A stretch of DNA of 64,000 nt from Minisyncoccota bacterium (GTDB taxonomy: Bacteria > Patescibacteriota > Minisyncoccia > Phycocordibacterales > UBA9973). Each line of letters starts with the position of its first letter. Within the stretch, counting starts at the first letter, position 1. Position numbers and translations under genes: made by a program. The notes under the pieces were generated by a model. The model searched no databases. It worked only from the letters and a program-made list of their open reading frames with translations, and was not told the DNA's origin. Below, in pieces: positions 4,108 to 61,062 of this stretch. The stretch is taken from NCBI GenBank assembly GCA_041675085.1, contig JBAYUN010000001.1, positions 9,829 through 73,828 on the forward strand, given 5' to 3'.

Positions 4108-4349
4108 CGTTTATATATATATGGTTCAGCAAAATCAATAATTCCTGATTGATAAAGGAAAATAAGAGTAAACATAAACTGTCGATAGTTTAACGATCCA
4201 ATTTCTGCTTTTAGCTTTAAAAAAATATCGTCTAGCATAACTTTTTTTTCTTCTGTCTTGCTTATTTTTTTTAAAATTAAATAACCAAGATAAGGAGGTG
4301 AAGTTTTTAGTTTTTCATCTTTATTAATCATATTAATTAGGGAAAACAT
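4104..4349 (-). CDS. small alpha-helical protein, candidate ABC-3C middle component
   Basis: 81 aa; overlaps both neighbours (4104-4107 and 4333-4349), indicating translational coupling. Confidence 0.5.
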   Translation of the reverse strand: MFSLINMINKDEKLKTSPPYLGYLILKKISKTEEKKVMLDDIFLKLKAEIGSLNYRQFMFTLIFLYQSGIIDFAEPYIYKR

Positions 4350-5289
4350 TACACTTAATTAATTCGTCTAAGACATAAAATCGAATCGCTTGGTAGTCAT
4401 ATTTCTTACCTGATTTATTTAAACATTCTGAAAAGTATTCAGTTAGCATATCGATTGCTTTTTTGGGATCTCCGTTTGTTTGTGTAAGAAAAATATCGCT
4501 TTTTATTCTTAGAAAATTTCTAATGAAATTAATCTTTACTGAATCCAAACCAAGAGTATTGTCTACCTCGCTCCTCGCAAGTGAATACCTTGGCAATAGA
4601 TCTACTATTTGATCTCTTAGGAATTGAGAATACTCAGAAAACCTATGCTCAATTTTATTCTCAGGATCTGGTTCTTCCAGCCATTGTTTTGTTTCGTTAC
4701 TTTTATTCGTGCTAAGGAAAACCACTAGATCAGCTATAGTCTCAATTTCATTCGCTAATGTCGCTTCAGGAGCACGGTCTTTTTGACTATCAAACTCTTT
4801 TCTTAGAAAACTACATATCTCCTTTATTTTATCAATATCATCTAATGATCTAATTATGGTTGTCAGTCTAGATAAATCATATATATCTCTGTCTTGGTCG
4901 AAATCAATATTGTCAGGAGAAGTAAATTTTGATTTTGACGCAGTTCTCCTAGAGACAATTAACATAAATCTTAGCGAATCAAATCTTTCTGATAATTTAT
5001 GGTCATTAAATTTTTTAATCGTTTTATCAATTTTTGCTTTCTTTTTTTCAGAAGTAACCTGAAAAGATACTCTAGCGTCACTATCTCCAAGGTCGATTGC
5101 AGGGAAATTTAAATCGAGTTCATTTAAATTTATTAAGTTTAGTTTGAATACAAGATTAAGAAGTTTACAAAAAAAATCTTCTGAAAGACCATTGATATCA
5201 TTCAAACCATTCGTGTTGTGTATTTTAACCAGAGACTCTAAACGACTAAAATAACTTATGATTTCATTGATAAGATTTTGTCGTTCCAT
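4333..5289 (-). CDS. SMEK-like N-terminal domain protein, candidate ABC-3C effector component
   Basis: 318 aa; N-terminal motifs 'NGLNDINGLSEDFFCKLLNLVF', 'NFPAIDLGD', 'RVSFQVTS' match, from memory, the SMEK domain NCBI annotates on ABC-3C effector proteins; C-terminal region helical; no recognisable nuclease/HEPN motif. Confidence 0.5.
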   Translation of the reverse strand: MERQNLINEIISYFSRLESLVKIHNTNGLNDINGLSEDFFCKLLNLVFKLNLINLNELDLNFPAIDLGDSDARVSFQVTSEKKKAKIDKTIKKFNDHKLSERFDSLRFMLIVSRRTASKSKFTSPDNIDFDQDRDIYDLSRLTTIIRSLDDIDKIKEICSFLRKEFDSQKDRAPEATLANEIETIADLVVFLSTNKSNETKQWLEEPDPENKIEHRFSEYSQFLRDQIVDLLPRYSLARSEVDNTLGLDSVKINFIRNFLRIKSDIFLTQTNGDPKKAIDMLTEYFSECLNKSGKKYDYQAIRFYVLDELIKCNVFPN

Positions 5290-5430: not shown

Positions 5431-5922
5431 TTAATAATTAACTTTATGTTGCTTCAAAATGTTTTCCAAATACTCAATTCGTTGAGTTTTTTGTTGTAAT
5501 TGATACTTTAATACTCCATTAATCGAAAATTCCTCAGGGCATTTTCTTTCAAGAAACCAACGTACCATTTTCAAATCTCCGTTTACTATAGCGTTGTAAA
5601 TTGCAACTCTAGCAAGAAAAATTGGCGTGGTCTGCAAAAGTTCAATTTTGTTGCGAAACTCAGGATATTTATTGCAGTAACGATAAAAAGAATCTGTTGA
5701 AATATCCGCAAAACAACAAGCTTCTTTAGCTGTTGCACCAATTGAAAAAGCGTATTGTAGTTTCGCAATAACTACATCAACGTTTTTACCATCAAAAAGG
5801 GGTCTCCCTGTCTTAATGTTTGGATTCGACACGACCTTATAATAAGCAGATGGTTGAAGCAAAAAATCTTTCACGTTCAACTCCTCAACATCAATCTTCA
5901 TTTTGTAGCTTGTAATACTCAT
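5431..5922 (-). CDS. phage terminase small subunit-like HTH protein
   Basis: 163 aa; 'ATAKEACCFADISTDSFYRYC' HTH followed by 'MVRWFLERKCPEEF', resembling the TerS WxLERxxPExF motif. Confidence 0.4.
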   Translation of the reverse strand: MSITSYKMKIDVEELNVKDFLLQPSAYYKVVSNPNIKTGRPLFDGKNVDVVIAKLQYAFSIGATAKEACCFADISTDSFYRYCNKYPEFRNKIELLQTTPIFLARVAIYNAIVNGDLKMVRWFLERKCPEEFSINGVLKYQLQQKTQRIEYLENILKQHKVNY

Positions 5923-21418: not shown

Positions 21419-21493
21419 GGCTCTATCGTCTAACGGTTAGGACACATCCTTCTCAAGGATGGAATCAGAGTTCGATTCTCTGTAGAGTCACCA
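21419..21493 (+). tRNA. tRNA-Glu (anticodon CTC)
   Basis: Manual fold: 7-bp acceptor GGCTCTA/TAGAGTC (one G-U), anticodon stem CATCC/GGATG, loop TTCTCAA, T-arm CAGAG-TTCGATT-CTCTG, encoded CCA. Confidence 0.85.
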
Positions 21494-21592
21494 CTTCGCT
21501 CTTGTTTACAAGAGCTACGCGGTGCACGCACTTTCGTTCGAGTAATTGTAGTATTTTGCTTGTTATAATTTGTGTTATAATAAATATAAACC

Positions 21593-22663
21593 ATGACAAA
21601 TGCTTTGAAAGTAAAAAAAAATATAATAGATGATGACGAGCATGTAAATTTTAGTTTTAAAAATTCTCAAATAAAAATAGAGAATAATTTTAAATTTATT
21701 GATTTTTGTGCAGGTATTGGAGCAGGCAGATTGGGTCTTGAAAAAAATGGACTTACTTGTGTTGGTTTTTCTGAGATAGACAAGCAAGCTGAAAAAACTT
21801 ACAGAAAATTTTTTGGTGCAGATGAAATAAATTATGGTGATTTAATGAAAATTGACACAAGTCAATTACCAGATTTTGATATTATGATAGCTGGATTTCC
21901 TTGCCAGACTTTTTCTGTTATTGGACAAAGAAAAGGAATGCAAGATGAACGCGGCCAAATTATTTATGGGCTTATCAAGATAATGCGTGATAAAAATCTA
22001 AAATACTTCATATTAGAAAATGTAAAAGGACTAACAAATCATGATAATGGAAATTCTTTAAAAGTCATTCTCAGTGAACTTGATAAGGCAGGTTATAAAG
22101 TATTTTCGGAAGTGTTAAATAGTATTGATTATGGAGTACCTCAAATGCGTGAAAGAATTTATTTTGTTGGGGTAAGAAAAGATTTAATTCCTGAAAATTT
22201 TACTTTCTCTTTTCCTGTTAAACAACCAAGGGTAAATGTGAAAGATTATCTTGTAGATGATGTAGATTTACATTTTGATAAAAAAAAAGAAGTTTATTCT
22301 ACTTTTTTAAAATATTTAAACAATAAATACAATATAGATAAGTTTTCTGTAAAAGATCTTTTGAAGAGAGATTTTTTAGTTTTAGACACTAGACAATCAG
22401 ACCTAAGATTGTATGATAATAGGGTACCTACATTAAGGACAGGGCGTCATGGTATTTTGTACGTTAGAAATGGAAAGTTTAGACAGCTTTCTGGTTATGA
22501 ATCTTTGTTGCTTCAAGGTTTTCCTGAAGAATTAGCCAAAAAAGTTAAAGGTAGCGTTGAAGAAATTCATCTTTTAAGGCAAACAGGAAATGCTATGACT
22601 GTAAGTACAATTTATTTTATTGTAAAAGAATTATTTAATAGCTTGAAAAAATATGAAAAATAA
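21593..22663 (+). CDS. DNA (cytosine-5)-methyltransferase (Type II R-M methylase)
   Basis: 356 aa; motif I 'FIDFCAGIGAGRLG', motif IV 'GFPCQTFS', motif VI 'ILENVKGL'. Confidence 0.9.
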   Translation: MTNALKVKKNIIDDDEHVNFSFKNSQIKIENNFKFIDFCAGIGAGRLGLEKNGLTCVGFSEIDKQAEKTYRKFFGADEINYGDLMKIDTSQLPDFDIMIAGFPCQTFSVIGQRKGMQDERGQIIYGLIKIMRDKNLKYFILENVKGLTNHDNGNSLKVILSELDKAGYKVFSEVLNSIDYGVPQMRERIYFVGVRKDLIPENFTFSFPVKQPRVNVKDYLVDDVDLHFDKKKEVYSTFLKYLNNKYNIDKFSVKDLLKRDFLVLDTRQSDLRLYDNRVPTLRTGRHGILYVRNGKFRQLSGYESLLLQGFPEELAKKVKGSVEEIHLLRQTGNAMTVSTIYFIVKELFNSLKKYEK

Positions 22664-23423
22664 AAAAAGAAACTCTGAAGAGATGGTTGTTCTTGGTTCT
22701 AAAACTGCTAAAGCTGGTTTTCGTAATGAGAATGATGTCATAGAGCGCTTTAATAATTGGGAAAAAGATAGTATTGCTAAGGAATGGTTAGCTGGAATGA
22801 ATTATAATATTGATGATATTGAATTTGTGAAAGCATCAAAGGTTAAAGGGCAGTACAAAGCAGATATTCAAGTAAGAATTACTGTATTAATTAAGTTAAA
22901 ATCTCAAGAAGATATACAAAATTTACAAATAAAGCTCGTTAGTAATCCTCAAGGCTTTAATCAAATAGATAAAAGGTGGGTAGATAGATATGTAGAACTT
23001 TGGAATATCCCAAATGATATTGTTAAGATTCTAAAACTTTTTACAGGAGAAATAATTTCCAAAAGAAAGAATCTGAGAGATTCTCGTAGAATGTTTTTAG
23101 ATGAAATGCCTAAGTCTGATCAATATAAATTGGTTAATTTTTTTAATACGCAGAAAATTTTGATTATTTCTGATTTATTGAAGGGTAGAGGAGAATTTTC
23201 AGCAGATTGGACTTTGGTAATTTTAAAAAATGGCGAAGAAAGTAGATGGGTTTTACGCTCTATTAATCACGTTATGAATGTTTTTGGTAACGGGGAAGTA
23301 AGAATAACAAAAGAAGGTAGTTTAAAGATTGGTAAAATTGGTATGCAACGAAAAGGTGGGGATGCTGGTCGTAAAACAGCACAAATGTTACAGTTTAAGA
23401 TTAATCCAGTTGAATTATTTTAA
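22653..23423 (+). CDS. putative Type II restriction endonuclease, partner of the C5-methyltransferase
   Basis: 256 aa; overlaps the methylase stop (real start may be Met at 22683); no housekeeping similarity; call based on context. Confidence 0.45.
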   Translation: MKNKKRNSEEMVVLGSKTAKAGFRNENDVIERFNNWEKDSIAKEWLAGMNYNIDDIEFVKASKVKGQYKADIQVRITVLIKLKSQEDIQNLQIKLVSNPQGFNQIDKRWVDRYVELWNIPNDIVKILKLFTGEIISKRKNLRDSRRMFLDEMPKSDQYKLVNFFNTQKILIISDLLKGRGEFSADWTLVILKNGEESRWVLRSINHVMNVFGNGEVRITKEGSLKIGKIGMQRKGGDAGRKTAQMLQFKINPVELF

Positions 23424-24893: not shown

Positions 24894-26222
24894 TTATAAC
24901 AATTCACTTGCCAATTCAGCTAAAGGAGACCTTTCGCTTTTTGTTAAATGAATATGAGCAAAACAATCTTGTCCTTGAAATTTCTGAATTAAATAACTCA
25001 ATCCATTAGACCTCTGGTCTAGATAAGGGTGATCTATTTGTTTAGTGTCTCCAAGAAATACAATCTTTGTACCTTCTCCTGCTCTTGTTGTAATAGCTTT
25101 AATTTCTTTTGGTGTTAGATTTTGAGCTTCATCTATTATAAAAAATAAGTTAGATAAAGTTCTACCTCTGATGAGGCTTAAAGGCTCAATACTTAGTTTG
25201 TTTTTTGATTCAAAGTCACTTATCATGTTATGGTTTTCTGTATGTAGCGCTCTTAAAACATCTAAGTTGTCGTACATACCTTTCATGTAAGGGGATATTT
25301 TTGCATCAATATCACCAGGTAAAAATCCTTCATCATGATTACCCATAGATATGGTTTGCCTTGTAAACAAAGCTTGTTCATATTTGTCGGTTTTTAACAT
25401 TTGTAGAGCACAGGCTAAAGCAAGTATTGTTTTACCAGTTCCAGCTTTTCCTTCAAGTACGACTAAAGATATCCCTGAATCAAGTAAAGCATCAGCGCTA
25501 AAAGTCTGTTCGCTATTTTTGGTATTCAAGCCAAATGGTTTTACTTTTTTCTTATCTTCTAGTAAGAAGATTTTACCATCTTTGTACTTCGCAAGAGCTG
25601 TTTTGTTTTCACCTTTGTTGATTATGAAATACTCGTTAGGTAAAGCGTGTTTAAGTTCGCGTGTAATTGATTTTTTAGAAAACAGGTTGTCTACGACGGA
25701 CGCTTCCATTTTGATGTTTTTAGTTTCTTTAAATAAAATATTCAAATTTTCAACTGTTTCATGTAAAAAATCTTGAGCAATAATTCCAATAGCTTTTGCT
25801 TTTAGCCTTAAATTAACGTCTTTAGTTACAAGAATAATATCTCTCTCTTTGTTTTGTTCTTGTAATAAATAAGTTGTGTTTAGAATCTTAGCGTCAGTAT
25901 TTTTTTCACTTAAATTTTTTTCGATATTTGGGTGCCATTCGTTGGAAAGTTCTATTTTTAATACACCCAAATTCTCTCCAATCATAATACCACCATTGAA
26001 TATTTTTTTATGAGCCATTTCATCAACTAGTCGACAAAACTCTCTAGCATTATAATTAATTTCCTCAAAACCTTTTTTAAAGGTATCAAGTTCTTCAATT
26101 ACTTGTATCGGTATGACTACATCATGCTCTTCAAACTTGTAGATGCATGAATAATCATGAAGTATGACATTTGTATCTAGAACAAACATCTTTTTTTCGA
26201 GAGGACTTTTACTTTGCGTCAT
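24894..26222 (-). CDS. PhoH-like ATPase with N-terminal PIN domain (YlaK family)
   Basis: 442 aa; PIN 'MFVLDTNVILHD'; P-loop 'VLEGKAGTGKTILALA'; PhoH C-terminus. Confidence 0.85.
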   Translation of the reverse strand: MTQSKSPLEKKMFVLDTNVILHDYSCIYKFEEHDVVIPIQVIEELDTFKKGFEEINYNAREFCRLVDEMAHKKIFNGGIMIGENLGVLKIELSNEWHPNIEKNLSEKNTDAKILNTTYLLQEQNKERDIILVTKDVNLRLKAKAIGIIAQDFLHETVENLNILFKETKNIKMEASVVDNLFSKKSITRELKHALPNEYFIINKGENKTALAKYKDGKIFLLEDKKKVKPFGLNTKNSEQTFSADALLDSGISLVVLEGKAGTGKTILALACALQMLKTDKYEQALFTRQTISMGNHDEGFLPGDIDAKISPYMKGMYDNLDVLRALHTENHNMISDFESKNKLSIEPLSLIRGRTLSNLFFIIDEAQNLTPKEIKAITTRAGEGTKIVFLGDTKQIDHPYLDQRSNGLSYLIQKFQGQDCFAHIHLTKSERSPLAELASELL

Positions 26223-26439
26223 CTTAAAATATTTAAAGGGTTTAAAAAATTATTTAGTTCAGTCTACACTCACTAAAAATGCAGGCTGAGCTAAATAATC
26301 TATTTTGCCTTTATTTTGTCGAAGACCTAATTTATGTTTACAATAAGGTATTCTGTGTACTTTGTCAAACTTTAGATGCTTTAAAATGTTCATATATATT
26401 GGATTAAATAAAATGATTGCTTTGTGCTAAAATGTACTT

Positions 26440-27918
26440 ATGCAAAAGAAAAAAGCGATTGTTATTGGGGCCGGTTTTGGAGGTTTGGCTACGGCTACGG
26501 ACTTGGCGTCTATGGGTTTTGAAGTCACTCTGCTCGAGAAGAACGAGATGGCAGGCGGACGGGCGCGAGTCTTTAAAGAAAAAGGTTTTACTTTTGATAT
26601 GGGGCCTTCTTGGTATATGATGCTTGAATATTTTGAAAGATTTTTTGCTAAGCATGGTCACAAATCTAGCGACTTCTACGAGACAGTATTGCTCGATCCA
26701 TCTTATCGTATCACTTACGAAGACGGCACTCGTGTAGAAATATCTTCAGAGCTAGAGAAAAATATAGCTTTATTTGAAAGTATTGAAAAAGGAGCAGGGG
26801 ATAAGTTGCGTGAATATCTAAAAGAAGCTGAGAGAAAATATCACCTATCGACAGATTTGGTTTTACAAAAAAGTGTCAATAACTTTTTTGATTTTTTCTC
26901 ATTTGAATTATTGACTAAAGCTTCTGGGTTAAATGTTTTCCAAAATCTAGATTCTTATGTAAGGAAATTTTTTAAAGATGAGAAATTGGTACAAATTATA
27001 GAATATATAACTCTATTTTTAGGTAGTAGTCCAAAGCAATTGCCAGCAGTATATTCTCTGATGAACTATGCGGATTTTGTCGGCCGAGTTTGGTACCCTG
27101 TAGGCGGTATGGGGCGCGTAGTAGAAGCTTTTGTAAAAATCGCTCGCGAGCGTGGAGTGAATTTTGTTTTTAATGCTGACGTTACTAAGATAGAAGTTGT
27201 CGATGGTACAGCTCGCGGAGTGTATGTGGGTGATGTATTTCACGAGGCGGATGTTGTAGTCTCGAATGCGGACTATCCTTTTACAGAGACGGTTTTGCTC
27301 GATAAGAAATGGCAGACTTATGATGTGTCATATTGGGATAAGAAAAAGATTTCACCTTCTGCTTTTATCCTTTATATTGGATTGAATAAAAAATTGAAAA
27401 ATGCTCTGCATCACAATTATTTCTTTAGAGAAAATTGGACCAAGCATTTTAAATCTGTTTTCGAAGAACCAGCTTGGGAAGAAAAGCCTTCTTATTATCT
27501 ATGTGTGCCTTCTGTGACCGATACTACGGTCGCTCCGCCTGATTGCGAGAATTTATTCTTCTTAGTACCCGCTGCTCCAGGTTTGGCTGACTCTAGTGAA
27601 TTTAGACAACAATACAGAGATAAAATGATCAAAGAGATAGAGAGTCTAGTAGGTGAGTCTATCGCGGATAATATAATATACGAACGTATCTACGCTCAGT
27701 CTGATTTTGAGAGAGATTATCATGCTCATAAAGGTACTGCACTCGGTATGGCTTTGAATTTAATGCAAACTGGATTCTTCCGTCCTCATAATAAAAGTAA
27801 AAAAGTAAAGAATTTATTCTATGCAGGTCAATATACGCATCCTGGTTGTGGTATGGCTCCTTGTATTATTTCTGGCGAGAATGTAGCGAGAGATATATCA
27901 AAAAAATATGGAAAGTAA
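26440..27918 (+). CDS. crtI: phytoene desaturase family FAD-dependent oxidoreductase (CrtI/CrtN-like)
   Basis: 492 aa; N-terminal 'AIVIGAGFGGLATATDLASMGFEVTLLEKNEMAGGRA' dinucleotide-binding motif. Confidence 0.8.
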   Translation: MQKKKAIVIGAGFGGLATATDLASMGFEVTLLEKNEMAGGRARVFKEKGFTFDMGPSWYMMLEYFERFFAKHGHKSSDFYETVLLDPSYRITYEDGTRVEISSELEKNIALFESIEKGAGDKLREYLKEAERKYHLSTDLVLQKSVNNFFDFFSFELLTKASGLNVFQNLDSYVRKFFKDEKLVQIIEYITLFLGSSPKQLPAVYSLMNYADFVGRVWYPVGGMGRVVEAFVKIARERGVNFVFNADVTKIEVVDGTARGVYVGDVFHEADVVVSNADYPFTETVLLDKKWQTYDVSYWDKKKISPSAFILYIGLNKKLKNALHHNYFFRENWTKHFKSVFEEPAWEEKPSYYLCVPSVTDTTVAPPDCENLFFLVPAAPGLADSSEFRQQYRDKMIKEIESLVGESIADNIIYERIYAQSDFERDYHAHKGTALGMALNLMQTGFFRPHNKSKKVKNLFYAGQYTHPGCGMAPCIISGENVARDISKKYGK

Positions 27919-28729
27919 TCAAGAAAAAATATTTAAAAACGGCAGTAAAACATTTTTTTATTCTACTTTTTTCTTTCCTGAAACAGCAAAAAAAGATATT
28001 ACTACACTCTATGCTTTCGTGCGTATTGCTGATGATTTCGTAGACGCTACACCTTCTGATAGTGTTGGTTTTTATGATTTTAAAAATAAATATATCAGAG
28101 CTCTTGGTGGCGAGAAGGCAGACTATGAAGTTATTGATGACTTTGTAGTCTTACAAAAAAAATATAATTTTGAACAAGAATGGATAGATGCTTTTTTCTC
28201 GGCTATGGAGTCGGATTTGTATCCTCAGTTTTGTAAAAATGCGACAGATACAGCAAAATATATGTATGGTTCAGCCGAAGTAGTTGGGCTTATGATGTGC
28301 AAGATCTTGAATATTAAAGAGGAGGCTTATGTTTATGCTCGCAAATTAGGCCAGGCTTTTCAGTATATTAATTTTATTCGAGATCTATATGAAGATGAGA
28401 AATTGGGCAGATTGTATTTGCCAGAAGAAAATATTTTGAAATCTGGTATATCAAAACTCTCTATAGAGACAGCTGAAAAAAATAAAATATCCTTTGAGAA
28501 TTTTATGAAAAAAGAGATTAAATATTTTTATCATTTAGTAGATGAAGCTCGTCCAGGTTTTGATTTTATACCTAGACGATATCGTATCCCGATAGTTATC
28601 GCTACCAATCTATACCTGTATACTGCAAAGATTATCGAGAATAATCCGTACATAGTCTACCAACAAAAAGTAAAACCAAATACAAAGAGGATTTTTTATG
28701 AAGCTTTAAAAGTAATAATTACAATTTAA
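27908..28729 (+). CDS. crtB: phytoene/squalene synthase family protein (CrtB/CrtM-like)
   Basis: 273 aa; 'YAFVRIADDFVD' Asp-rich motif; 4-nt-scale overlap with crtI. Confidence 0.8.
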   Translation: MESNQEKIFKNGSKTFFYSTFFFPETAKKDITTLYAFVRIADDFVDATPSDSVGFYDFKNKYIRALGGEKADYEVIDDFVVLQKKYNFEQEWIDAFFSAMESDLYPQFCKNATDTAKYMYGSAEVVGLMMCKILNIKEEAYVYARKLGQAFQYINFIRDLYEDEKLGRLYLPEENILKSGISKLSIETAEKNKISFENFMKKEIKYFYHLVDEARPGFDFIPRRYRIPIVIATNLYLYTAKIIENNPYIVYQQKVKPNTKRIFYEALKVIITI

Positions 28730-28730
28730 A

Positions 28731-29762
28731 ATGCAAGAAAAAGATATAAAAAATAAAATAAATAAATTACAAGTTTTTTTAAAAAAGTTTTTAATCTCAA
28801 CTAAGGTTAAAAATAAAAATATAAACATTTGGCATAAAGATATTGAGACTAAAATATTACCTTTTGCGGTATCTGGTAAAAGTATGAGAGGTTTATTGGT
28901 CATACTTTCTAGTGGTAAAGAAGACTCTAATTCTTTAAAATTAGCTAGTGCTTTAGAGTTGCTCCATACTGCTTTCTTGATTCATGATGATATTATGGAT
29001 CAAGATGAAAAAAGAAGAGGGCTAGACTCTATTTATAATCAATATGCAAAAGAAATTCCTAAGAAAGATTTACATTATGGTATCAGTCAGGCTATTTCTA
29101 TGGGGGATATTCTTTTTTTCTTAACTTTTACTTTGTTGAATAAAATTGAGCATAAGAATAAAGAAAAGTTGGTTAGCTTTTTTGTGAATGAAGTTGTGCG
29201 AGTAGGTTTTGGGCAAATGCAGGATGTTTTTATTGGTTCTTATGCAAAAAACCCAGATTTAGATACTATTATAGATATACATAGATATAAGACTGCTAGA
29301 TATAGTATTAGTTTGCCTTTGGTTTTAGGTTATTATCTTAACGATAAGGATTTTGATCAAAAGATTTTGAATCAGATAATTTTAGCAGGAGAATATCTAG
29401 GTATAGCTTTTCAAATGAAAGATGATGACTTAGGTATTTGGGGTCAAACAGAAAGTACTGGTAAAGGAGTATTGAAAGACGTAAATAAAAATAAAAAAAC
29501 TGCTATTAAATTCTTACTCCTTAAAGAAGTAAATAAAAAAGAGAAAGTTTTTATAGATAATATTTTTGGAAAAGAGAATTTATCTAAGAATGATATATAT
29601 AATCTATTTCAATTATTAGAAAAATACAATATTCAAAAGAAACATAATGAGATTATATCAGAGTATAATAAAAAAGCAGCACAGATAACAAAGAAGCTAC
29701 CAAAACATTATCAAGAAATTTTATTTTTTATTCAAAATTTTAATGATAAAAGAGTTAAATAA
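28731..29762 (+). CDS. polyprenyl (isoprenyl diphosphate) synthase
   Basis: 343 aa; first DDxxD 'LIHDDIMDQD', second 'FQMKDDDLG'. Confidence 0.85.
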   Translation: MQEKDIKNKINKLQVFLKKFLISTKVKNKNINIWHKDIETKILPFAVSGKSMRGLLVILSSGKEDSNSLKLASALELLHTAFLIHDDIMDQDEKRRGLDSIYNQYAKEIPKKDLHYGISQAISMGDILFFLTFTLLNKIEHKNKEKLVSFFVNEVVRVGFGQMQDVFIGSYAKNPDLDTIIDIHRYKTARYSISLPLVLGYYLNDKDFDQKILNQIILAGEYLGIAFQMKDDDLGIWGQTESTGKGVLKDVNKNKKTAIKFLLLKEVNKKEKVFIDNIFGKENLSKNDIYNLFQLLEKYNIQKKHNEIISEYNKKAAQITKKLPKHYQEILFFIQNFNDKRVK

Positions 29763-30610
29763 TGAATAAATATATCTCACAATTCAATCAGATTTTAAAA
29801 TTATCCCGACCGAGTTTTTGGTTTTATTTAGCTGGGCCGTTTTTTGTGGGTTTTACTTTTGGCAGTGATACTTTGGTCGACTTTAATACTGGATTCTTTT
29901 TGTTATTATTTTATTTTCTCGTCCCATCTAATATTTTGGTTTATAGTATCAATGATCTAGCTGATGAGAAAATAGATATTTTGAATGCTAAAAAAGAAAA
30001 TAAAGAGATACGAGTGGACGGCTCAAATAAAAATCAGGTCAAAATAGCTTTTTATTTTAGTTTACTATGTAGCGCCTTAGTACTTTTTGTTCTCAAAGAC
30101 AATACTAGTATAATGTTGTTTCTAGCTTTTATTTTCCTTAGCATATTCTACAGTTTGCCACCATTACGTTTTAAGACAAAGATTTTTTTAGATTTTATCT
30201 CAAATATTTTATATATTATTCCTGGTATTTTAGGTTTCTATCAAGCGACTTCTGCACTACCTCTAGGGATATTTATTCTGGCTTCAATGTTTTGGGCTTT
30301 CGCTATGCATTTATTCTCAGCTGTAGTAGATATCGAACCAGACACAAAGGCCAACATCCAAACCTCGGCTGTGTATTTAGGCTTTAAGAAAAGTTTGTGG
30401 CTATGCTTTTTGTTTTGGTCTATGTCTTGGTTTTTGATTTTTTATAGTGGAGTATTCAATAATTTTATTTATCTGTTCCTTGTTTATCCATTATTACCTC
30501 TTTATGTTTTACGGAAAAAGAATGTTGATTTAGAGCGGGTGTATTGGTGGTATCCGGTGATAAATATAGTTTTAGGTTTTGTGTTATTTTTATTGGCTTA
30601 TTTTAATTAA
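29762..30610 (+). CDS. UbiA-family prenyltransferase (lycopene elongase-like candidate)
   Basis: 282 aa; polytopic membrane protein with 'NDLADEKID' Asp-rich motif. Confidence 0.7.
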   Translation: MNKYISQFNQILKLSRPSFWFYLAGPFFVGFTFGSDTLVDFNTGFFLLLFYFLVPSNILVYSINDLADEKIDILNAKKENKEIRVDGSNKNQVKIAFYFSLLCSALVLFVLKDNTSIMLFLAFIFLSIFYSLPPLRFKTKIFLDFISNILYIIPGILGFYQATSALPLGIFILASMFWAFAMHLFSAVVDIEPDTKANIQTSAVYLGFKKSLWLCFLFWSMSWFLIFYSGVFNNFIYLFLVYPLLPLYVLRKKNVDLERVYWWYPVINIVLGFVLFLLAYFN

Positions 30611-30612
30611 TT

Positions 30613-31350
30613 ATGAAAATTTCAATTGTTATACCTTGTTTAAATGAAGAAGATTTTATACCTTATCTTATTGAAGATCTTAGGAATCAAAGTGTTTTGC
30701 CTTTTGAGATTATCGTAGTCGACGCAGGCTCTACCGATAAAACTTTAGAAAGGGTAAAGAACGATACTTTAGTCAAAGTCTACAATAGACCTCCCAATAT
30801 CGGCGCTCAGAGACAATACGGAGGCGAGCAAGCAACTGGAGACTATTTATTTTTTCTTGATGCTGACGTGAGATTACCGATAGACTTCTTGGAAAAAAGT
30901 ATCATGGAGGTCAAACAAAGAAATTTAGGTATAGCTGCATTTAGGTATGTACCATATGCAAAAGATGAGAATGGAGTTTTGAAACAATCTTCATTACCTA
31001 TTAGTTTTTGTTACAAGTTTTTAGATGTTTTGTTTTTTATATTTCAGAAAATTTCTCCTTCTGGGGCAGGTTCGGGTATTTTCGTTAAAAAAGAAATTTT
31101 TGATAGTAGTCTAGGTTTTAGTAAAAATTTAAAATTTGATGATATTGAGTTTATTAGAAGAGTTGCTCGTTATATAAAATTTGGACAACTTAAAGTACAA
31201 TTATTCGTATCAGATAGAAGATTTGTGAGATATGGAGTTGTTAAAATATTTGTGTCATATTTGGTTTTATCTATATTTTTTATGTTTAATTTGTTTAAAG
31301 CTGCTGAAGTGGTAGAATATAAGTTCTCGGATTATTATAAAAAGAAATAA
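30613..31350 (+). CDS. family 2 glycosyltransferase
   Basis: 245 aa; 'ISIVIPCLNEE', 'IIVVDAGSTDKT', 'FLDADV'. Confidence 0.8.
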   Translation: MKISIVIPCLNEEDFIPYLIEDLRNQSVLPFEIIVVDAGSTDKTLERVKNDTLVKVYNRPPNIGAQRQYGGEQATGDYLFFLDADVRLPIDFLEKSIMEVKQRNLGIAAFRYVPYAKDENGVLKQSSLPISFCYKFLDVLFFIFQKISPSGAGSGIFVKKEIFDSSLGFSKNLKFDDIEFIRRVARYIKFGQLKVQLFVSDRRFVRYGVVKIFVSYLVLSIFFMFNLFKAAEVVEYKFSDYYKKK

Positions 31351-31354
31351 ATTT

Positions 31355-33097
31355 ATGAAAATATTATATACATATTTAAGAAAATACTGGAAACTTTGTT
31401 TGGGAGTTTTAATACTGGCTTTAGTGAATCAAGTCTTTTCTTTGATTGACCCTTTGATATTTAGATATATCATCGATGATTATGCTAGCCGACCACTCGA
31501 CTATTCTAGTGTGGAATTTTTTAATGGTGTTGTTAGGCTCTTATTGATTGCTATTGGAGTAGTCTTTGTATCTCGCGTAGCCAAGAATTTTCAAGATTAT
31601 TATTTGAATAAAGTTAGTCAAAAAATAGGTTCTGATATGTATCAAGCGGGAGTCAGGCATTCTTTGTTATTGCCTTATGAAGTTTTTGAAGATCAAAAGA
31701 GTGGAGAGACTTTAGGGATATTACAAAAAGCTCGTACTGATGCTGAAAAATATTTAAATTCAATTATTAATATTGTTTTCGTTTCTTTGATTGGATTTAT
31801 TTTCGTTTCTGTTTATGCTTGGATTGTCTATCCGCCGATAGCTTTGGTTTATATCATGATTCTACCAGTGATAGGTGGGACTAGTTATTTTCTTACTCGA
31901 AAATTAAAACAAGTTCAAAAAAATATCGTGAACGAGACGACACAGCTTGCAGGTTCGACTACTGAATCTTTGCGTAATATTGAGCTTGTAAAAAGCTTGG
32001 GACTTGCTGACCAGGAGATAAATAGATTAAATAAAACTACAGAAAAGATTCTAAATTTAGAATTAAAAAAATTACGTTATGTTCGTAGTATTAGTTTTAT
32101 TCAAGGCACATTAATTAATTTGATTCGTAATGCGATTTTATTATTTTTGCTTTATTTGGTTTTCAAGCAGACTATAACTTTCGGGGAATTTTTCTCTTTG
32201 TACATTTATTCATTCTTTATTTTTGCGCCACTGCAGGAAATAGGAACTGTCATTACCGTATATAGAGAAGCTGAAGTTTCTATGAACAAAATGGGAGATA
32301 TTTTAAACATAGAAAAAGAAGCTATTCCTCAAAGTCCAATTCACTTAGATCGTGTAGACAATATTAAACTTAGTGACGTCTCCTTTAAGTACAAAAATGC
32401 AGTAAATGATGCTCTTGAGAATATATCTTTTGATATTAATAAAGGAGAGACTATTGCTTTTGTAGGACCTTCTGGTTCAGGTAAGACCAGTTTAGTAAAA
32501 TTATTAGTTGGACTTTATCAGCCGAACCAAGGCAAATTGTCTTACAACAATATTCTTAGTACAGATATAGATTTAAATGATTTACGTTCTCAGATAGGTT
32601 TCGTTACTCAAGATACTCAGCTTTTCTCTGGTACTATAAAAGAGAATTTACTTTTCGTAAATCCGAAGGCAACAGATGAAGAAATGTTAGAAGTCTTGCA
32701 TAAAAGTGCTTGTGATGCATTGCTCGCTCGTGCAGAAAAGGGTATCGATACTACTATAGGTGAAGGTGGAGTTAAGATTTCTGGAGGAGAACGTCAGAGA
32801 CTTTCTATTGCTCGGGCTCTATTACGTAAACCTTCGATTTTAGTTTTTGATGAAGCGACCTCGTCACTAGACTCTATTACCGAAGAAGAGATAACCAACA
32901 CAATGAAAACTTTAGATAAAGAAAAAGCTCATCTAACTATTCTTGTTGCCCATAGACTGTCTACTATTATGCACGCAGACAAGATTTATGTTTTAGAAAA
33001 AGGGCGTATTAGTGAGATGGGGCGGCATGAAGATTTGTTAAATCAAAAAGGATTGTACTATGCTATGTGGCGTCAGCAGATAGGAGAGAGGACCTAG
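31355..33097 (+). CDS. ABC transporter permease/ATP-binding protein (type I exporter)
   Basis: 580 aa; 6-TM N-domain; Walker A 'GPSGSGKTS', signature 'LSGGERQR', Walker B 'ILVFDEATS'. Confidence 0.9.
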   Translation: MKILYTYLRKYWKLCLGVLILALVNQVFSLIDPLIFRYIIDDYASRPLDYSSVEFFNGVVRLLLIAIGVVFVSRVAKNFQDYYLNKVSQKIGSDMYQAGVRHSLLLPYEVFEDQKSGETLGILQKARTDAEKYLNSIINIVFVSLIGFIFVSVYAWIVYPPIALVYIMILPVIGGTSYFLTRKLKQVQKNIVNETTQLAGSTTESLRNIELVKSLGLADQEINRLNKTTEKILNLELKKLRYVRSISFIQGTLINLIRNAILLFLLYLVFKQTITFGEFFSLYIYSFFIFAPLQEIGTVITVYREAEVSMNKMGDILNIEKEAIPQSPIHLDRVDNIKLSDVSFKYKNAVNDALENISFDINKGETIAFVGPSGSGKTSLVKLLVGLYQPNQGKLSYNNILSTDIDLNDLRSQIGFVTQDTQLFSGTIKENLLFVNPKATDEEMLEVLHKSACDALLARAEKGIDTTIGEGGVKISGGERQRLSIARALLRKPSILVFDEATSSLDSITEEEITNTMKTLDKEKAHLTILVAHRLSTIMHADKIYVLEKGRISEMGRHEDLLNQKGLYYAMWRQQIGERT

Positions 33098-33146
33098 ATA
33101 TATTTTCTTTCAAAATACAAGCTTTTATGTTAAGCTCTATCGGTAT

Positions 33147-34055
33147 ATGAATAAAATAGATAAAATTTTATTAGGTATGATTTCTATACTTTCTGTATTG
33201 ATTTTAGTATTTTCATTTTATAAATTTGATTTTTCTGTTTTAGGTAATACTCAATATGCAAATATTTTCACATCTGAGAAAGAAGAAGTATTAACACCAA
33301 AGGTGATAAGTATATTAGGTAAAGCCGAGTTGAGTTATCTCGGTAGTACTAGTGAGCGGATTCAGAATATTAAACTTGGGGTAGCGCGTATCAACGGTAC
33401 GATAGTTAAACCCGGAGAAGAATTTTCTTTTAATAAAACTATGGGCCCTGTTTTATCGGCCGACGGATTTCAAGAAGCCAAGTCTTTCTTGAATGGGGAA
33501 GTCGTACTCGGTATCGGAGGAGGAATTTGCCAAGTTTCTACTATTTTGTTTGAAAGTCTTGTGAATGCAGGTTTACCTATATCAGAGCGTCATAACCATA
33601 CTTTTTCTGTATCGTATTATACTACTGGGCTCGACGCGACGGTCTCCCAATCTGGACCTGATTTAAAATTTATAAATGATACAGGTTATGATATTGAAAT
33701 TAAAGGCTACATAACGGAGAATAATACAGCTTTATTTGAAATATATGGAGTCTCAGATGAACGTGTGGTATCTCTTAGTAAAGCTGTCGTGACTAATAAG
33801 ACCAATACTCCACTCACTCAATACGAAGAAACTTCTGATATTAAAAAAGACGGGCAATGCCACAATACTCCACAAGGAGGCTATACTGCACGAGTTCTTT
33901 ATAATGTATTGTATAAAAACGGCATAAATAAAGAGCAAGTATTTGATTCTGTTTATAAGCCTCTGGGGCGTACTTGTTATATTTATACTGATCCATTAAC
34001 TGGCTGTAATTCTACTACTTTGTATAGTCCAAAGACTGGTATGAAATGCGAATAG
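33147..34055 (+). CDS. VanW family protein
   Basis: 302 aa; N-terminal TM; 'GGGICQVSTILFESLVNAGLPISERHNHTFSVSYY'. Confidence 0.75.
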   Translation: MNKIDKILLGMISILSVLILVFSFYKFDFSVLGNTQYANIFTSEKEEVLTPKVISILGKAELSYLGSTSERIQNIKLGVARINGTIVKPGEEFSFNKTMGPVLSADGFQEAKSFLNGEVVLGIGGGICQVSTILFESLVNAGLPISERHNHTFSVSYYTTGLDATVSQSGPDLKFINDTGYDIEIKGYITENNTALFEIYGVSDERVVSLSKAVVTNKTNTPLTQYEETSDIKKDGQCHNTPQGGYTARVLYNVLYKNGINKEQVFDSVYKPLGRTCYIYTDPLTGCNSTTLYSPKTGMKCE

Positions 34056-34073: not shown

Positions 34074-34106
34074 GTCGCTTTTTGTAAAAAAGCGACATTT
34101 TTTTTT
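34074..34106 (+). terminator. rho-independent terminator
   Basis: GTCGCTTTTT-gta-AAAAAGCGAC followed by ATTTTTTTTT. Confidence 0.8.
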
Positions 34107-35136: not shown

Positions 35137-35724
35137 ATGGAATCTTTATCGGTTTATATAATAGAAAATCTAAATAATATCGCACCTGTTTTCCAGATAT
35201 TCTGGATGTCTCTTTTTGCATACCTCGAAGGACTACCTGTAGTGGGTTCTATTTTACCAGGAGGTACTATCGCATTACTCGCTGGTAGTATATCTTCGAC
35301 TGGGTCTTTCTCTCCACTTGTTGCTTTTTTATTTATTGGAATTAGTAATTTCTTGGGAGACATGACTGGATTTTTACTCGGCAAGAAATTCAAGAATAAT
35401 AGTTTTATTAAAAAGTTGGTCGAGAAGGAAAGTCATCAAAAGAATTGGGATCTATTCGATAGGCATATCGCTCTCATTAGTATCTTTGGGAAATTGATTC
35501 CTCTAGTTCGTTCAGTTCCTTCGATATTCGCAGCATTCAGGGGTATCAAGACTCGCCGATATATAACCTATAGTTTTATTGGTTCGTTCTTGTGGTCTTT
35601 TGCTGGAGTGTATTTCGGGAATTTCTTGGCACAAATTTTCGGCAGTAGCGCGATACTGATAATCTTTGGTATCTTACTAATATCTATAGCTTTAGTTGTC
35701 TTTAATTATTTAAAGAAGAAATAA
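35137..35724 (+). CDS. DedA/SNARE-associated (TVP38/TMEM64) family membrane protein
   Basis: 195 aa; 'FGKLIPLVRSVPSIFAAFRGI...FIGSFLWSF'. Confidence 0.75.
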   Translation: MESLSVYIIENLNNIAPVFQIFWMSLFAYLEGLPVVGSILPGGTIALLAGSISSTGSFSPLVAFLFIGISNFLGDMTGFLLGKKFKNNSFIKKLVEKESHQKNWDLFDRHIALISIFGKLIPLVRSVPSIFAAFRGIKTRRYITYSFIGSFLWSFAGVYFGNFLAQIFGSSAILIIFGILLISIALVVFNYLKKK

Positions 35725-41933: not shown

Positions 41934-42677
41934 TTGTATAGTTTTAGTGATAAAATTTGTTCACAACACAATTTAAATTCTTTTACAATGAAATACAGTG
42001 ATAATCCCATTGAAGACGAACTTTTTCATAGAACACATCGTTTAATGGAGGAGTATGAACATTTCTTATGCTCAAATAACGGTGTTTATAGTTTAAATGC
42101 TCATCAGTGTTTAATGTATGCTCACTTTCCTTATTTGGGTGATAAAAAAAGACAAATTATCTTACCTATGCCTAGAGAAAAATGGTATCCATCTAATGCA
42201 TGTTTAGATCTAGAAAATTTTCATGCTGAAAATGGAACTTTGTGGCCAAGCATGTCTCATTATAATTATTCTATGGATTCATGTATAAATGAATTTCCAG
42301 GATTACTTTGTTTTGGGTATGCTGTTTGTGCTGAGGAATTATTTCCATGTGCATTTTTTGTAAATTTTTTACTTACAGGAGAAATTCCAGGTTCTGACGA
42401 TAAATTTCCTGAAGAATGGGCTATAGATCCTATGGGTATTGCATCAGGTAAAAAACCTGAATGTTACATAGGAGTTAGTCCTAAAATTGAAGATGTTCAA
42501 GATTGGATTTTAAGCAAAACAGTGCATCCACTCGAAGCTTGGGCTAAAGATAGAAATTCTGATATTTTAGAGAGTAGAAATATTGAAAAGGAGATTTATC
42601 TATATCACCAAAGTGTTGTAAACAATCTTGAACCAGGAACGCAAGAACAGTATATTAAATGGTTAGATTTTTCTTAA
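41934..42677 (+). CDS. hypothetical Cys/His/aromatic-rich protein
   Basis: 247 aa (or 229 aa from Met at 41988); 12 Cys and many His/Trp/Tyr/Phe; no recognisable family. Confidence 0.5.
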   Translation: MYSFSDKICSQHNLNSFTMKYSDNPIEDELFHRTHRLMEEYEHFLCSNNGVYSLNAHQCLMYAHFPYLGDKKRQIILPMPREKWYPSNACLDLENFHAENGTLWPSMSHYNYSMDSCINEFPGLLCFGYAVCAEELFPCAFFVNFLLTGEIPGSDDKFPEEWAIDPMGIASGKKPECYIGVSPKIEDVQDWILSKTVHPLEAWAKDRNSDILESRNIEKEIYLYHQSVVNNLEPGTQEQYIKWLDFS

Positions 42678-48919: not shown

Positions 48920-50695
48920 TTGAGTGAATTACCTATGAATTATAAAAGAATTTTTTATTATTATTGGCGTATTGCTAAAAAATATAATTTAGCAATATTT
49001 TTCATTTTATTTTTAGGTATAGGTAGAATTGCCTTTTCTTTTATTGCAGGAGGTTATATTTATAAATTAATTATAGATACTTTAAATAATGATTTACTTG
49101 ATATAGAAATAAAGTACGACATAATCTTAATCTTATTAGTTGCTATAGCTTTTTCATTCTTAATTTCTTTATTTACATCTAGAATGCTTGATTATACAAA
49201 ATTTCGATTTACGACTCGAGTTGTTAAAGAATTATATGATTTTACTTTTATTAAGATTTTGAATCATTCATATGGTTTTTTTTCTAATAATTTTTCTGGT
49301 AGTTTAGTTACAAAAACAAAAAGATTTATACAATCTTTTGAAACATTTGCTAATGTTTTAATTGATGGTTTTTGGCCTATATTTCTTTCCATTTTATTTA
49401 CTTTTGGTGCTTTGTATTTACAATCAAAAGTTTTAGCTTTTTATCTTTTAATCTGGTCTGTTCTTTATTTTGGATTGGTCTTATTTTTTCTTAAAAAGAA
49501 AATTCAAATCGATTTAAAATGGGCAGAATCAGATTCTAAAATCACTGGATATTTATCAGATTCTATTACTAATATATTTAATATTAAAATATTTTCTGCG
49601 TTAACTAATCAAAAAAAAGAGTTTTCCGAATTTAGTACAGATTTAAAAAAAACAAGTTTTATGTCTCTTAAATTTTGGACTATAAGGGCTACAGTCCAAG
49701 CTTTTTTTATGGTTTGTTTTCATGTTTTTATTCTATATACAATGATTAATCTTTGGAAAGACGGAGAAATTACGATTGGAGTTTTTGTGATGGCTTATAT
49801 TTATTTAGTTGGATTATTTGATCGTATTTGGGACTTGGCAACTAATATAAACACCTTCGTAAAAGCCACCACTGACGCTAAAGAAATGGTAGATATTTTT
49901 GATAAACCGATAGATATAATGGATCCTGAAATCCCAGAAAAATTAAATATTAAAAACGGTGAGATAGAATTTAAAAATGTTTTCTTTGAATATAATAATG
50001 ACAATGAAGTCTTTACTAATTTTAATTTAAAGATAACACCTGGAGAAAAAATTGGGCTCGTTGGACATTCAGGATCTGGCAAGACAACCATTACTAAAAT
50101 GCTTTTGCGTTTCGTTGATATTAAATCGGGTGATATTTTAATAGACGGGCAGAATATCAAAAATATTACTCAAGATGATTTGCGTAGTGTTATTTCGTAT
50201 GTGCCTCAAGATCCAATTTTATTTCACAGGAGCATAGGGGAGAATATAGGTTATTCTAAGGAAAATGCGACACAAGAAGAAATTGTAGCGTCTTCAAAGA
50301 AAGCTCATGCAGATGAATTTATCGCTAAATTACCTAAAGGTTATGATACTCTTGTAGGCGAGAGGGGTATCAAGCTTTCAGGTGGAGAACGTCAACGGGT
50401 CGCTATCGCTCGAGCTATGCTTAAAAATTCACCTATACTAGTACTCGACGAAGCGACTTCATCACTCGACAGTATCAGTGAGGTTTATATTCAAGAGTCT
50501 TTAAACGAACTAATGAAAGGTAAGACCGCTATTGTTATTGCTCATAGACTTTCTACAATTGCCAAAATGGATAGGATTATAGTTTTAGATAAAGGTATGA
50601 TTTTAGAACAAGGTACTCATCAAGAGCTACTAGATAAAGGTGGCATGTATACTAAGCTTTGGGATCATCAAACAGGTTTTCTGAATGAAGAATAA
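48920..50695 (+). CDS. ABC transporter permease/ATP-binding protein (type I exporter)
   Basis: 591 aa; Walker A 'GHSGSGKTT', signature 'LSGGERQRVAIARAM', Walker B 'ILVLDEATS'. Confidence 0.9.
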   Translation: MSELPMNYKRIFYYYWRIAKKYNLAIFFILFLGIGRIAFSFIAGGYIYKLIIDTLNNDLLDIEIKYDIILILLVAIAFSFLISLFTSRMLDYTKFRFTTRVVKELYDFTFIKILNHSYGFFSNNFSGSLVTKTKRFIQSFETFANVLIDGFWPIFLSILFTFGALYLQSKVLAFYLLIWSVLYFGLVLFFLKKKIQIDLKWAESDSKITGYLSDSITNIFNIKIFSALTNQKKEFSEFSTDLKKTSFMSLKFWTIRATVQAFFMVCFHVFILYTMINLWKDGEITIGVFVMAYIYLVGLFDRIWDLATNINTFVKATTDAKEMVDIFDKPIDIMDPEIPEKLNIKNGEIEFKNVFFEYNNDNEVFTNFNLKITPGEKIGLVGHSGSGKTTITKMLLRFVDIKSGDILIDGQNIKNITQDDLRSVISYVPQDPILFHRSIGENIGYSKENATQEEIVASSKKAHADEFIAKLPKGYDTLVGERGIKLSGGERQRVAIARAMLKNSPILVLDEATSSLDSISEVYIQESLNELMKGKTAIVIAHRLSTIAKMDRIIVLDKGMILEQGTHQELLDKGGMYTKLWDHQTGFLNEE

Positions 50696-60987: not shown

Positions 60988-61062
60988 TTTTATTTGTTTT
61001 TAAAGGTCAATTAATATTTTATTCATTTTGAATTTAACATTAAATACTGCTTCTGTCAATTA

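Follow-up and report, generated by a model that had tools for sequence, protein, structure and literature searches.

The window analysed here, a 64-kb stretch of DNA, comes from a metagenome-assembled genome (MAG) of Candidatus Paceibacterota, a synonym of Minisyncoccota, a phylum within the Candidate Phyla Radiation (CPR). On its plus strand, at positions 26440-33097, it carries six intact, co-directional open reading frames (ORFs) that encode a CrtI-family desaturase, a phytoene-synthase-family enzyme, a prenyl diphosphate synthase, a UbiA-family prenyltransferase, a family 2 glycosyltransferase (GT2) and an ATP-binding cassette (ABC) exporter. An initial annotation had described these genes as tightly packed or overlapping, and we found them at the same coordinates, with spacings from the first to the sixth gene of -11, +1, -1, +2 and +4 bp. 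We propose, with a probability of about 0.7, that they belong to a native Candidatus Paceibacterota operon for an acyclic, elongated carotenoid of the bacterioruberin type, in which the pathway ends in glycosylation and not in hydration by CruF. The glycosylated, possibly elongated carotenoid predicted in the initial annotation is supported by the LyeJ family membership of the UbiA protein, by the full-length match of the desaturase to the CrtID model and by a clade of LyeJ-linked GT2s to which the glycosyltransferase belongs. All six proteins exceed the gathering scores in a Pfam profile search (Table 1).

A LyeJ-like UbiA protein and a CrtID-like desaturase in one operon

Judged by its profile matches, the UbiA gene belongs to the LyeJ family, outside the quinone, haem and chlorophyll branches, and is the most diagnostic gene of the cluster. 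Its product scores 267.3 bits on the NCBIfam LyeJ model (PRK12875/NF009516, cutoff 205) over profile positions 14-285 of 292, while the next UbiA-subfamily models reach 117 and 96 bits and the UbiA, MenA, ChlG and DGGGP-type models at most 42 bits. For comparison, the Haloferax lyeJ (locus L005), which lies between CrtID (779 bits) and CruF (445 bits), matches the same model at 464 bits. The Asp-rich motif NDLADEKID given in the initial annotation, which noted that the UbiA family includes lycopene elongases, is present at aa 64-72, and kinship with these elongases is borne out by the LyeJ match; a second motif, DIEPD, lies at aa 190-194, and both are conserved in nine homologues. The best named homologues are haloarchaeal prenyltransferases with 36-41% identity together with a Woesearchaeota protein, and two matches carry the Joint Genome Institute (JGI) name 'lycopene elongase/hydratase'. 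A genome scan with the UbiA protein returned haloarchaeal loci only, with no bacterial relatives, and these loci were used as the reference trio. LyeJ shares an operon with a CrtD/CrtID-type desaturase in the window and in the related loci L013, L015, L016, L017, L019, L021 and L022. The UbiA protein would accordingly be expected to add a C5 unit to lycopene and to hydrate its 1,2 bond.

The desaturase matches the NCBIfam model for the bifunctional phytoene desaturase/3,4-desaturase CrtID (NF058655) at 637.9 bits (cutoff 640), with positions 2-478 of 478 covered. TIGR02734 comes next with 452 bits, followed by two CrtD models with 257 and 219 bits. The relatives score between 636 and 681 bits on the CrtID model, with L013 at 636, L016 at 638.3, and L017, L019 and L021, which pass, at 672-681. 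The protein has the FAD motif GAGFGG at aa 10-15 and is 41-42% identical to the product of the haloarchaeal gene immediately upstream of lyeJ; sequence searches of the PDB did not separate CrtI from CrtD for this enzyme. The name of the CrtID model corresponds to the Haloarcula japonica enzymes C0507 and D1086, each of which carries out both desaturations, as established by gene disruption and complementation (PMC11946383). Bifunctionality of this type would explain how lycopene formation and the subsequent 3,4-desaturations could both be provided by one CrtI-family gene. The desaturase is 83% identical to its relative in L013 and 77% to that in L016, while the identities of the other pathway enzymes are 42-65%, which suggests a stronger constraint on a bifunctional desaturase.

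The LyeJ-linked glycosyltransferase clade

In all eight independent loci inspected in which the GT2s are at least 40% identical, the GT2 gene adjoins a LyeJ gene, either overlapping it or separated from it by 2 bp. It directly follows lyeJ within a crt cluster in the window, L013, L016, L021, L022 and L023, and the lyeJ-GT2 pair is also found in L014, cut at a contig end, and in L025, where no crtI is nearby. The closest relative is L013, which has the same seven genes (the six named above and a downstream VanW gene) with protein identities of 56-83%. In L016 the order is crtID-crtB-ids-lyeJ-GT2. L021 and L022 have crtID-crtB-lyeJ-GT2 divergent from a TetR-family gene, which is also found at L015, and their GT2s are 44-46% identical to that of the window. 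L025 has the order photolyase-crtB-lyeJ-GT2, with a GT2 of 40% identity. In L023 the order is crtI-crtB-lyeJ-GT2 and the GT2 is fused to a type-1 isopentenyl diphosphate (IPP) isomerase (Idi; P0168, L023 2825-4090, 421 aa). A second protein, P0286 (429 aa), is a fusion of CruF with Idi. Both Idi domains pass NCBIfam equivalog cutoffs, and the two fusions tie both GT2 and CruF to isoprenoid supply. Among the relatives of the GT2, the names Nomurabacteria and Paceibacteria occur.

Below about 40% identity the linkage to LyeJ is gone: the GT2 of L024 (37%) is not LyeJ-linked, and among the matches listed from a metagenome scan with the GT2 alignment none of 80 loci at 26-40% identity was LyeJ-linked or beside crt genes. 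The metagenome relatives were used as an unlinked outgroup and not as evidence against the linkage; with L024, the distant paralogues without linkage number at least 81. In a neighbour-joining (NJ) tree, all LyeJ-linked GT2s group in a single clade that is separate from the sampled paralogues without linkage; our NJ trees of LyeJ and of GT2 are rough, midpoint-rooted and without support values, and were used for grouping only. The GT2 has a DAD motif at aa 83-85, in which D83 and D85 are invariant, and 11 residues are invariant across 61 homologues. It carries a C-terminal hydrophobic helix, and its AlphaFold2 model (pLDDT 91.7) has a GT-A fold with Foldseek matches that are all GT-A enzymes at a probability of 1.0. 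Its scores lie below the cutoffs of the closest family, TIGR04283 (114.2 against 182 bits), and of CruG (28.1 against 600). From these sequence comparisons we conclude that the GT2 is a tailoring enzyme dedicated to the pathway, and the conserved linkage suggests that its acceptors are most probably the tertiary 1-OH groups that would be made by LyeJ.

Apparent alternation of CruF and GT2

The first four genes occur in the same order as in the window in L017/L018, with protein identities of 37-47% (LyeJ 43%). Here the cluster crtID-crtB-ids-lyeJ-CruF is divergent from a photolyase gene, and CruF occupies the fifth slot, where the window has the GT2. This cluster also differs from that of the window in having the photolyase and not PhoH2 upstream, and in having no ABC exporter or VanW downstream. 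The locus is low-GC and the named relative of its CruF is from Candidatus Roizmanbacteria.

In the 64-kb window we found no CruF (PF04240), neither by tblastn (best E 0.81) nor with a hidden Markov model (HMM) of 48 homologues (best E 0.2, with a positive control at 278 bits). None of 53 CruF homologues from a collection of 5.8 billion proteins lay on the 529,268-bp source contig, as far as a shared-word search that is not exhaustive could find them.

As an observation on the same loci, a DNA photolyase gene adjoins the LyeJ cluster in two independent lineages, divergently at L017 (5275-6630) and L018 (1614-2969) and co-directionally at L025 (3923-5278). This adjacency hints at a light or UV context, or at co-regulation, in the related loci.

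A possible envelope module and the ABC exporter

The linkage bears on an alternative in which the first four genes make a carotenoid and the GT2, the ABC exporter and VanW form an unrelated envelope module, with the GT2 charging a polyprenyl phosphate, the exporter flipping it and the pigment left unglycosylated. By sequence, the solved structure nearest to the GT2 is indeed that of a dolichol-phosphate mannose synthase (5mlz, 1.5e-8), in a match confined to the N-terminal half, the matches also include ArnC and GtrB-like enzymes, the broader GT2 family is mostly without linkage to carotenoid genes, and ABC exporters and VanW are typical envelope proteins. Nevertheless, the pairing of GT2 with lyeJ persists in the eight independent loci down to 40% identity, also where ABC exporter and VanW are missing, within a crtB-lyeJ cluster one GT2 homologue forms a single protein with IPP isomerase, the linked GT2s are a clade of their own, and in L017 the slot of the GT2 is held by CruF, a carotenoid-tailoring enzyme. 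We consider this alternative unlikely.

The exporter itself is a generic half-transporter with ABC_membrane and ABC_tran domains, its score on the MsbA equivalog being 342.7 bits against a cutoff of 602. Among the related loci, an ABC exporter and VanW follow the GT2 only in L013, where the ABC protein is 73% identical to that of the window and VanW begins within the stop codon region of the ABC gene, so that the two overlap; neither gene follows the GT2 in L014, L016, L021, L022, L023 or L025. The inclusion of the exporter in the cluster, as first annotated, therefore stands insofar as the gene is co-directional and probably co-transcribed with the pathway genes, but L013, the closest relative, is the only locus in which it is kept together with the cluster. 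ABC exporter and VanW appear to share the transcript in this lineage without being core parts of the system, and VanW has no known link to carotenoids. That the exporter flips a glycosylated carotenoid is possible but unsupported. Elsewhere in the window (48920-50695, plus strand) there is a second half-transporter with ABC_membrane and ABC_tran domains, 31% identical over its full length to that of the operon, and the two could form a heterodimer.

Chain length and class of the product

A second alternative keeps the carotenoid but stops it at C40, so that the UbiA protein would be no elongase and the product would be a hydroxylated C40 glycoside of the rhodopin type. The UbiA protein has only 36-41% identity to the named haloarchaeal LyeJ-family proteins, and UbiA enzymes are functionally plastic. 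Set against this, it passes the LyeJ equivalog cutoff over its full length with the next model at less than half its score, both of its prenyl-diphosphate-binding Asp-rich motifs are kept, and it always occurs with a CrtID-type desaturase, whose 3,4-desaturation acts on elongated intermediates. We regard termination at C40 as very unlikely.

The two synthases are less closely matched by named models. The first, as annotated initially, has a DDxxD motif (DDFVD, aa 42-46), and a second motif, RDLYED, is found at aa 158-163; both Asp-rich motifs are kept across eight homologues. It meets no NCBIfam equivalog cutoff, with the CrtB models at 66-89 bits against cutoffs of 480-550. The prenyl synthase had been credited with two DDxxD motifs, of which the first is present (DDIMD, aa 86-90) and the second is a DDxLG variant (DDDLG, aa 231-235) and not a strict DDxxD; DDxLG is found in four of four relatives. 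It too lies below all equivalog cutoffs (GGPP_syn 114.6 against 500 bits, IdsA 111 against 468), and the solved structures nearest to it are geranylgeranyl diphosphate (GGPP) synthases (3lk5, 9e-21; 1wy0, 5e-17). From context, the first enzyme would be a phytoene synthase with C40 specificity and the second probably a GGPP synthase.

A C30 diapocarotenoid pathway like that of staphyloxanthin, with a CrtM-like synthase, a CrtN-like desaturase and a CrtQ-like GT2, would agree with the CrtM-type structures nearest to the synthase in the PDB sequence search (5iys, 7e-17; 8is6, 3.5e-16; S. aureus CrtM, about 1e-10), and CrtQ is a GT2 enzyme. These PDB searches did not separate C30 from C40 synthases. 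Against the C30 pathway, the operon contains a prenyl synthase of its own, to which GGPP synthases are the nearest solved structures, the desaturase scores 638 bits over its full length on the C40/C50 CrtID model, no oxidase of the CrtP/CrtO type or acyltransferase is present, and LyeJ-type enzymes act on lycopene, which makes a C30 product highly improbable. Remoter still is a non-pigment terpenoid, that is, squalene/hopanoid precursors, a prenylated quinone or an archaeal-type lipid: HpnD and HpnC are the top NCBIfam matches of the synthase and the relatives of UbiA include quinone and ether-lipid prenyltransferases, but HpnD (112 bits, cutoff 279), HpnC (95, cutoff 250) and HpnE (53, cutoff 283) are far under their cutoffs, as the UbiA, MenA and DGGGP-type models are low for the UbiA protein, and the window has no cyclase or quinone ring genes, so that the squalene/hopanoid or quinone identity that the initial annotation had named as refuting the carotenoid is not what the profiles favour.

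The proposed pathway

From the gene families, the operon structure and the conserved linkage, which are observed, we infer each catalytic step and the product as follows. The prenyl synthase would make GGPP, and the CrtB-like enzyme, given its family and context, would join two GGPP into phytoene. By analogy with the bifunctional enzymes characterised in haloarchaea, the CrtID-like desaturase is predicted to form lycopene from phytoene and later to introduce the 3,4 and 3',4' double bonds into C45/C50 intermediates. The LyeJ-like UbiA protein would transfer a C5 unit from dimethylallyl diphosphate (DMAPP) onto C-2 and hydrate the 1,2 bond, either at a single end of the molecule or at both. The products of LyeJ and CrtID would be isopentenyldehydrorhodopin (C45) and bisanhydrobacterioruberin (C50), which have tertiary 1-OH groups. 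The GT2, presumably anchored at the membrane by its C-terminal helix, may then transfer a sugar from a nucleotide sugar to these hydroxyls, as its linkage suggests, yielding a mono- or diglycoside. The predicted product is thus a glycosylated carotenoid like bisanhydrobacterioruberin, of C45/C50, and such a bipolar, membrane-spanning pigment might serve in photoprotection or antioxidant defence, in membrane stiffening, or in both.

Several points weigh against this pathway. The desaturase falls 2 bits short of the NCBI cutoff for CrtID. The CrtB-like enzyme and the prenyl synthase match no equivalog, and the assignment of C40 and not C30, like that of the C20 length, comes from context. For the GT2, the fold search is generic, with a TM score of about 0.6 to many enzymes, and is uninformative on the acceptor, and the wider family includes the 81 or more paralogues without LyeJ linkage. 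CruF could be encoded elsewhere, the 64 kb seen being part of at least 529 kb, and in a Baikal Saccharibacteria genome cruF lies far from lyeJ (PMC9948471). Finally, searches of the window found no Idi gene and no gene of the methylerythritol phosphate (MEP) or mevalonate pathway, and freshwater Paceibacteria have been reported with only the C10-C20 isoprenoid steps (PMC9166423). The Idi fusions in the relatives underline the need for DMAPP.

Organization of the operon

Table 1. Genes and other features of the carotenoid operon, with positions in the window.
Feature	Position	Strand	Details
CrtI-family desaturase, CrtID-like	26440-27918	+	492 aa; Pfam Amino_oxidase 142 bits
Phytoene-synthase-family enzyme, CrtB-like	27908-28729	+	273 aa; Pfam SQS_PSY 162.6 bits (cutoff 26)
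Short-chain trans-prenyl diphosphate synthase (IdsA/CrtE role)	28731-29762	+	343 aa; Pfam polyprenyl_synt 161 bits
UbiA-family, LyeJ-like lycopene elongase/1,2-hydratase homologue	29762-30610	+	282 aa; Pfam UbiA 88 bits
GT2 glycosyltransferase, LyeJ-linked clade	30613-31350	+	245 aa; Pfam Glycos_transf_2 (PF00535) 90.1 bits (cutoff 23.3)
ABC exporter half-transporter, type IV, MsbA-like	31355-33097	+	580 aa; ABC_membrane 109 bits, ABC_tran 115 bits
VanW-domain protein, N-terminal membrane anchor	33147-34055	+	Pfam VanW 152.6 bits
Bidirectional intrinsic-terminator-like hairpin	34074-34096	.	10-bp stem with 4 GC pairs; T-runs on both strands
Putative promoter region, common to the operon and the divergent PhoH2 gene	26223-26439	+	Extended -10-like element; function predicted

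The proteins of the operon are also recorded on a metagenomic contig of 529,268 bp (ERZ27247358, k141_557398) and in GenBank (MFA7285265.1-MFA7285269.1), where MFA7285265.1, MFA7285268.1 and MFA7285269.1 bear the name Candidatus Paceibacterota bacterium. VanW, which starts 49 bp past the ABC exporter gene, is probably the last gene of the transcript, making the operon one gene longer than first annotated. There is no second comparable terminator-like hairpin anywhere in 26440-34055, and the short distance to VanW and the sole strong hairpin, which by its sequence probably ends the operon, suggest that the transcript probably covers this interval.

Upstream, an extended -10-like element (TGcTAAAAT, 26425-26433) ends 6 nt ahead of the crtID ATG, and no Shine-Dalgarno sequence was seen ahead of this ATG. 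We speculate from these two features of the sequence that the operon mRNA might be leaderless. Scans of the upstream region for promoter consensus sequences gave several weak candidates, in a number not above that in shuffled sequence. The only inverted repeat upstream of the operon (26244-26304) is far from the promoter. Neighbouring sites for a light regulator (LitR/CarH) had been suggested as something to look for, and in profile and repeat searches neither such a regulator gene nor an obvious operator was found beside the operon. An 85-aa ORF on the minus strand (26404-26661) overlaps the crtI start and was rejected as spurious. The divergent gene, at 24894-26222 on the minus strand, is of the PhoH2 type, with a PIN domain and a PhoH ATPase; its product scores 258 bits on the NCBIfam model for the RNA 5'-3' helicase PhoH2, below the cutoff of 680. 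In the public record a 44-aa ORF is called between this gene and the operon.

Host and genomic context

The remaining window is an ordinary CPR chromosome, with genes for FtsZ/FtsA, GreA, an aminoacyl-tRNA synthetase, RsmH, a penicillin-binding protein and a Mur ligase, and further housekeeping genes for GatB, Obg, a release factor, an aldolase and the F-type ATP synthase. This agrees with the metabolically reduced genome noted initially. The horizontal acquisition considered there is not supported as a recent event. The operon genes have GC contents of 0.26-0.38, where the mean for the window is 0.343 ± 0.042; the codon-usage distance of the operon is 0.257, against 0.218 ± 0.046 in other five-gene blocks, 22% of which are as distant or more; and its 4-mer distance equals the window mean. 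L013 shares not only the cluster of seven genes but also the downstream neighbours RmuC, ExoX-like, YqeY, MYG1 and Obg. This native composition together with the synteny speaks against recent horizontal acquisition of the operon. That L014 and L016 hold the cluster in other neighbourhoods suggests that it has moved within the group. In the rough NJ tree, LyeJ sequences of the low-GC loci are separate from the haloarchaeal clade and not nested in it.

Other features of the window were recorded alongside the operon. About 1 kb downstream of it (35137-35724, plus strand) is a gene for a DedA/VTT-domain membrane protein, which is kept in L013; a part in the recycling of polyprenyl phosphate has been ascribed to DedA proteins. 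A few kb upstream, at 21419-23423 on the plus strand, a type II restriction-modification pair comes after a tRNA-Glu(CTC). The members of the pair are a C5 cytosine methyltransferase (PADLOC MTase_II, 349 bits) and an endonuclease of the R.HinP1I family (REase_II, 307 bits). The GC content at third codon positions (GC3) of the pair is 0.16-0.21, against a window mean of 0.27, which suggests that it may be a small mobile insertion. At 2332-5289 on the minus strand there is a candidate defence pair, a 591-aa DUF2326 protein (PADLOC PDC-M68B, 178 bits, with a weak match to LmuB) and a 318-aa SMEK_N-domain protein that matches the N-terminal part of the Aga_REase-PNTD model (144 bits). Just downstream of this pair lies a LOOT RNA (Rfam RF03000, 2086-2212, minus strand; 75.4 bits, gathering score 46.4), an RNA characteristic of the OD1/OP11/TM7 (CPR) lineages. 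Two ORFs of 238 and 657 aa at 60271-63036 (minus strand) have no significant Pfam or PADLOC match, and ORFs of 163 aa (5431-5922) and 247 aa (41934-42677) have no significant Pfam match.

Relation to known C50 pathways

The core of the operon corresponds to the known bacterioruberin-type (LyeJ) system of haloarchaea and some Actinobacteria, and what sets it apart is the unusual host and the predicted tailoring step. In Haloarcula japonica the genes are crtD/CrtID (c0507), lyeJ (c0506) and cruF (c0505), and the same trio is found in Haloferax. The desaturase family is common to these loci and the window, and the LyeJ proteins are of the same PRK12875 family, with 35-37% identity by tblastn to the haloarchaeal loci. 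In both, the desaturase gene lies upstream of lyeJ, but only in haloarchaea is it immediately adjacent. The window differs in having the GT2 after lyeJ and no CruF, and in having crtB and the prenyl synthase inside the operon; its host is a CPR bacterium with 33% GC, whereas the haloarchaeal hosts have 63-69%.

For bacteria related to the host, lyeJ, crtD and cruF have been reported in Candidatus Patescibacteria of Lake Baikal, with a proposed role in the membrane or in cold adaptation (Haro-Moreno et al. 2023, PMC9948471). There the genes are not in an operon and no glycosyltransferase was reported, whereas the window has a compact operon with crtB, a prenyl synthase and a GT2 and without CruF. 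What our analysis adds to that work is the presence in Paceibacterota of this compact crtID-crtB-ids-lyeJ-GT2 operon, together with a slot in which CruF and GT2 apparently alternate and a LyeJ-linked GT2 clade that includes an Idi fusion. In a full-text literature search we found no other paper that joins CPR and bacterioruberin, and none on a LyeJ-linked GT2.

Arthrobacter makes glycosylated bacterioruberins, which have been linked to membrane adaptation at low temperature (PMC10991996). The acyclic C50 carotenoids of Arthrobacter agilis and A. bussei include mono- and diglycosides, as predicted for the window, but Arthrobacter has separate CrtI and CrtD enzymes as well as CruF, and in the literature surveyed its glycosyltransferase gene is unassigned. 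According to PMC10991996, bacterioruberin is glycosylated by 'GT-2 glucosyltransferases unique to C50 carotenoids', a statement not confirmed in the main text of its source. The actinobacterial clusters for cyclic C50 carotenoids, crtE-crtB-crtI-crtYe/Yf-crtEb (with crtX in Dietzia sp. CQ4), resemble the window in having a UbiA-family elongase in the operon and, in some, a glycosyltransferase gene in or near it, but unlike the window they have C50 cyclases (CrtYe/Yf, LbtA/BC) and a non-hydrating elongase. CruG of cyanobacteria has in common with the class of the GT2 a GT-A fold, a DXD motif and lipophilic carotenoid acceptors (hydroxyl or carboxyl), but the CruG model, 386 aa long, matches only the N-terminal 50 residues, and the GT2 of the window is much shorter at 245 aa. 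CruC and CrtQ are other GT2 carotenoid glycosyltransferases, and CruC acts on a tertiary 1'-OH like that which LyeJ creates.

Significance

The prevailing picture of CPR bacteria is one of minimal biosynthesis and dependence on a host. The five-enzyme pathway, whose genes add up to less than 5 kb, takes up about 1% of the 529-kb source contig, and its being intact and conserved in place in a relative suggests that carotenoids are under selection in CPR cells. The pathway in such a cell raises the question of where its IPP and DMAPP originate. The alternation of CruF and GT2 in one slot of an operon is a simple natural experiment in pathway tailoring, and the GT2 clade provides a concrete candidate for the glycosylation of acyclic C45/C50 carotenoids, a step for which no gene has been assigned in the literature on bacterioruberin producers that we surveyed. 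We tentatively go further, although we hold the whole of it to be doubtful, and suggest that the LyeJ-linked GT2 clade may be a family of carotenoid glycosyltransferases that has so far escaped recognition and takes the place of CruF at the end of the pathway, and that with it some CPR bacteria, which are unable to make their own fatty acids, may produce a bipolar, doubly glycosylated C50 'membrane rivet' that in this lineage would be flipped or exported by the co-transcribed ABC transporter. If this were true, these cells would have autonomous control of membrane rigidity and of photoprotection while their bulk lipids come from a host.

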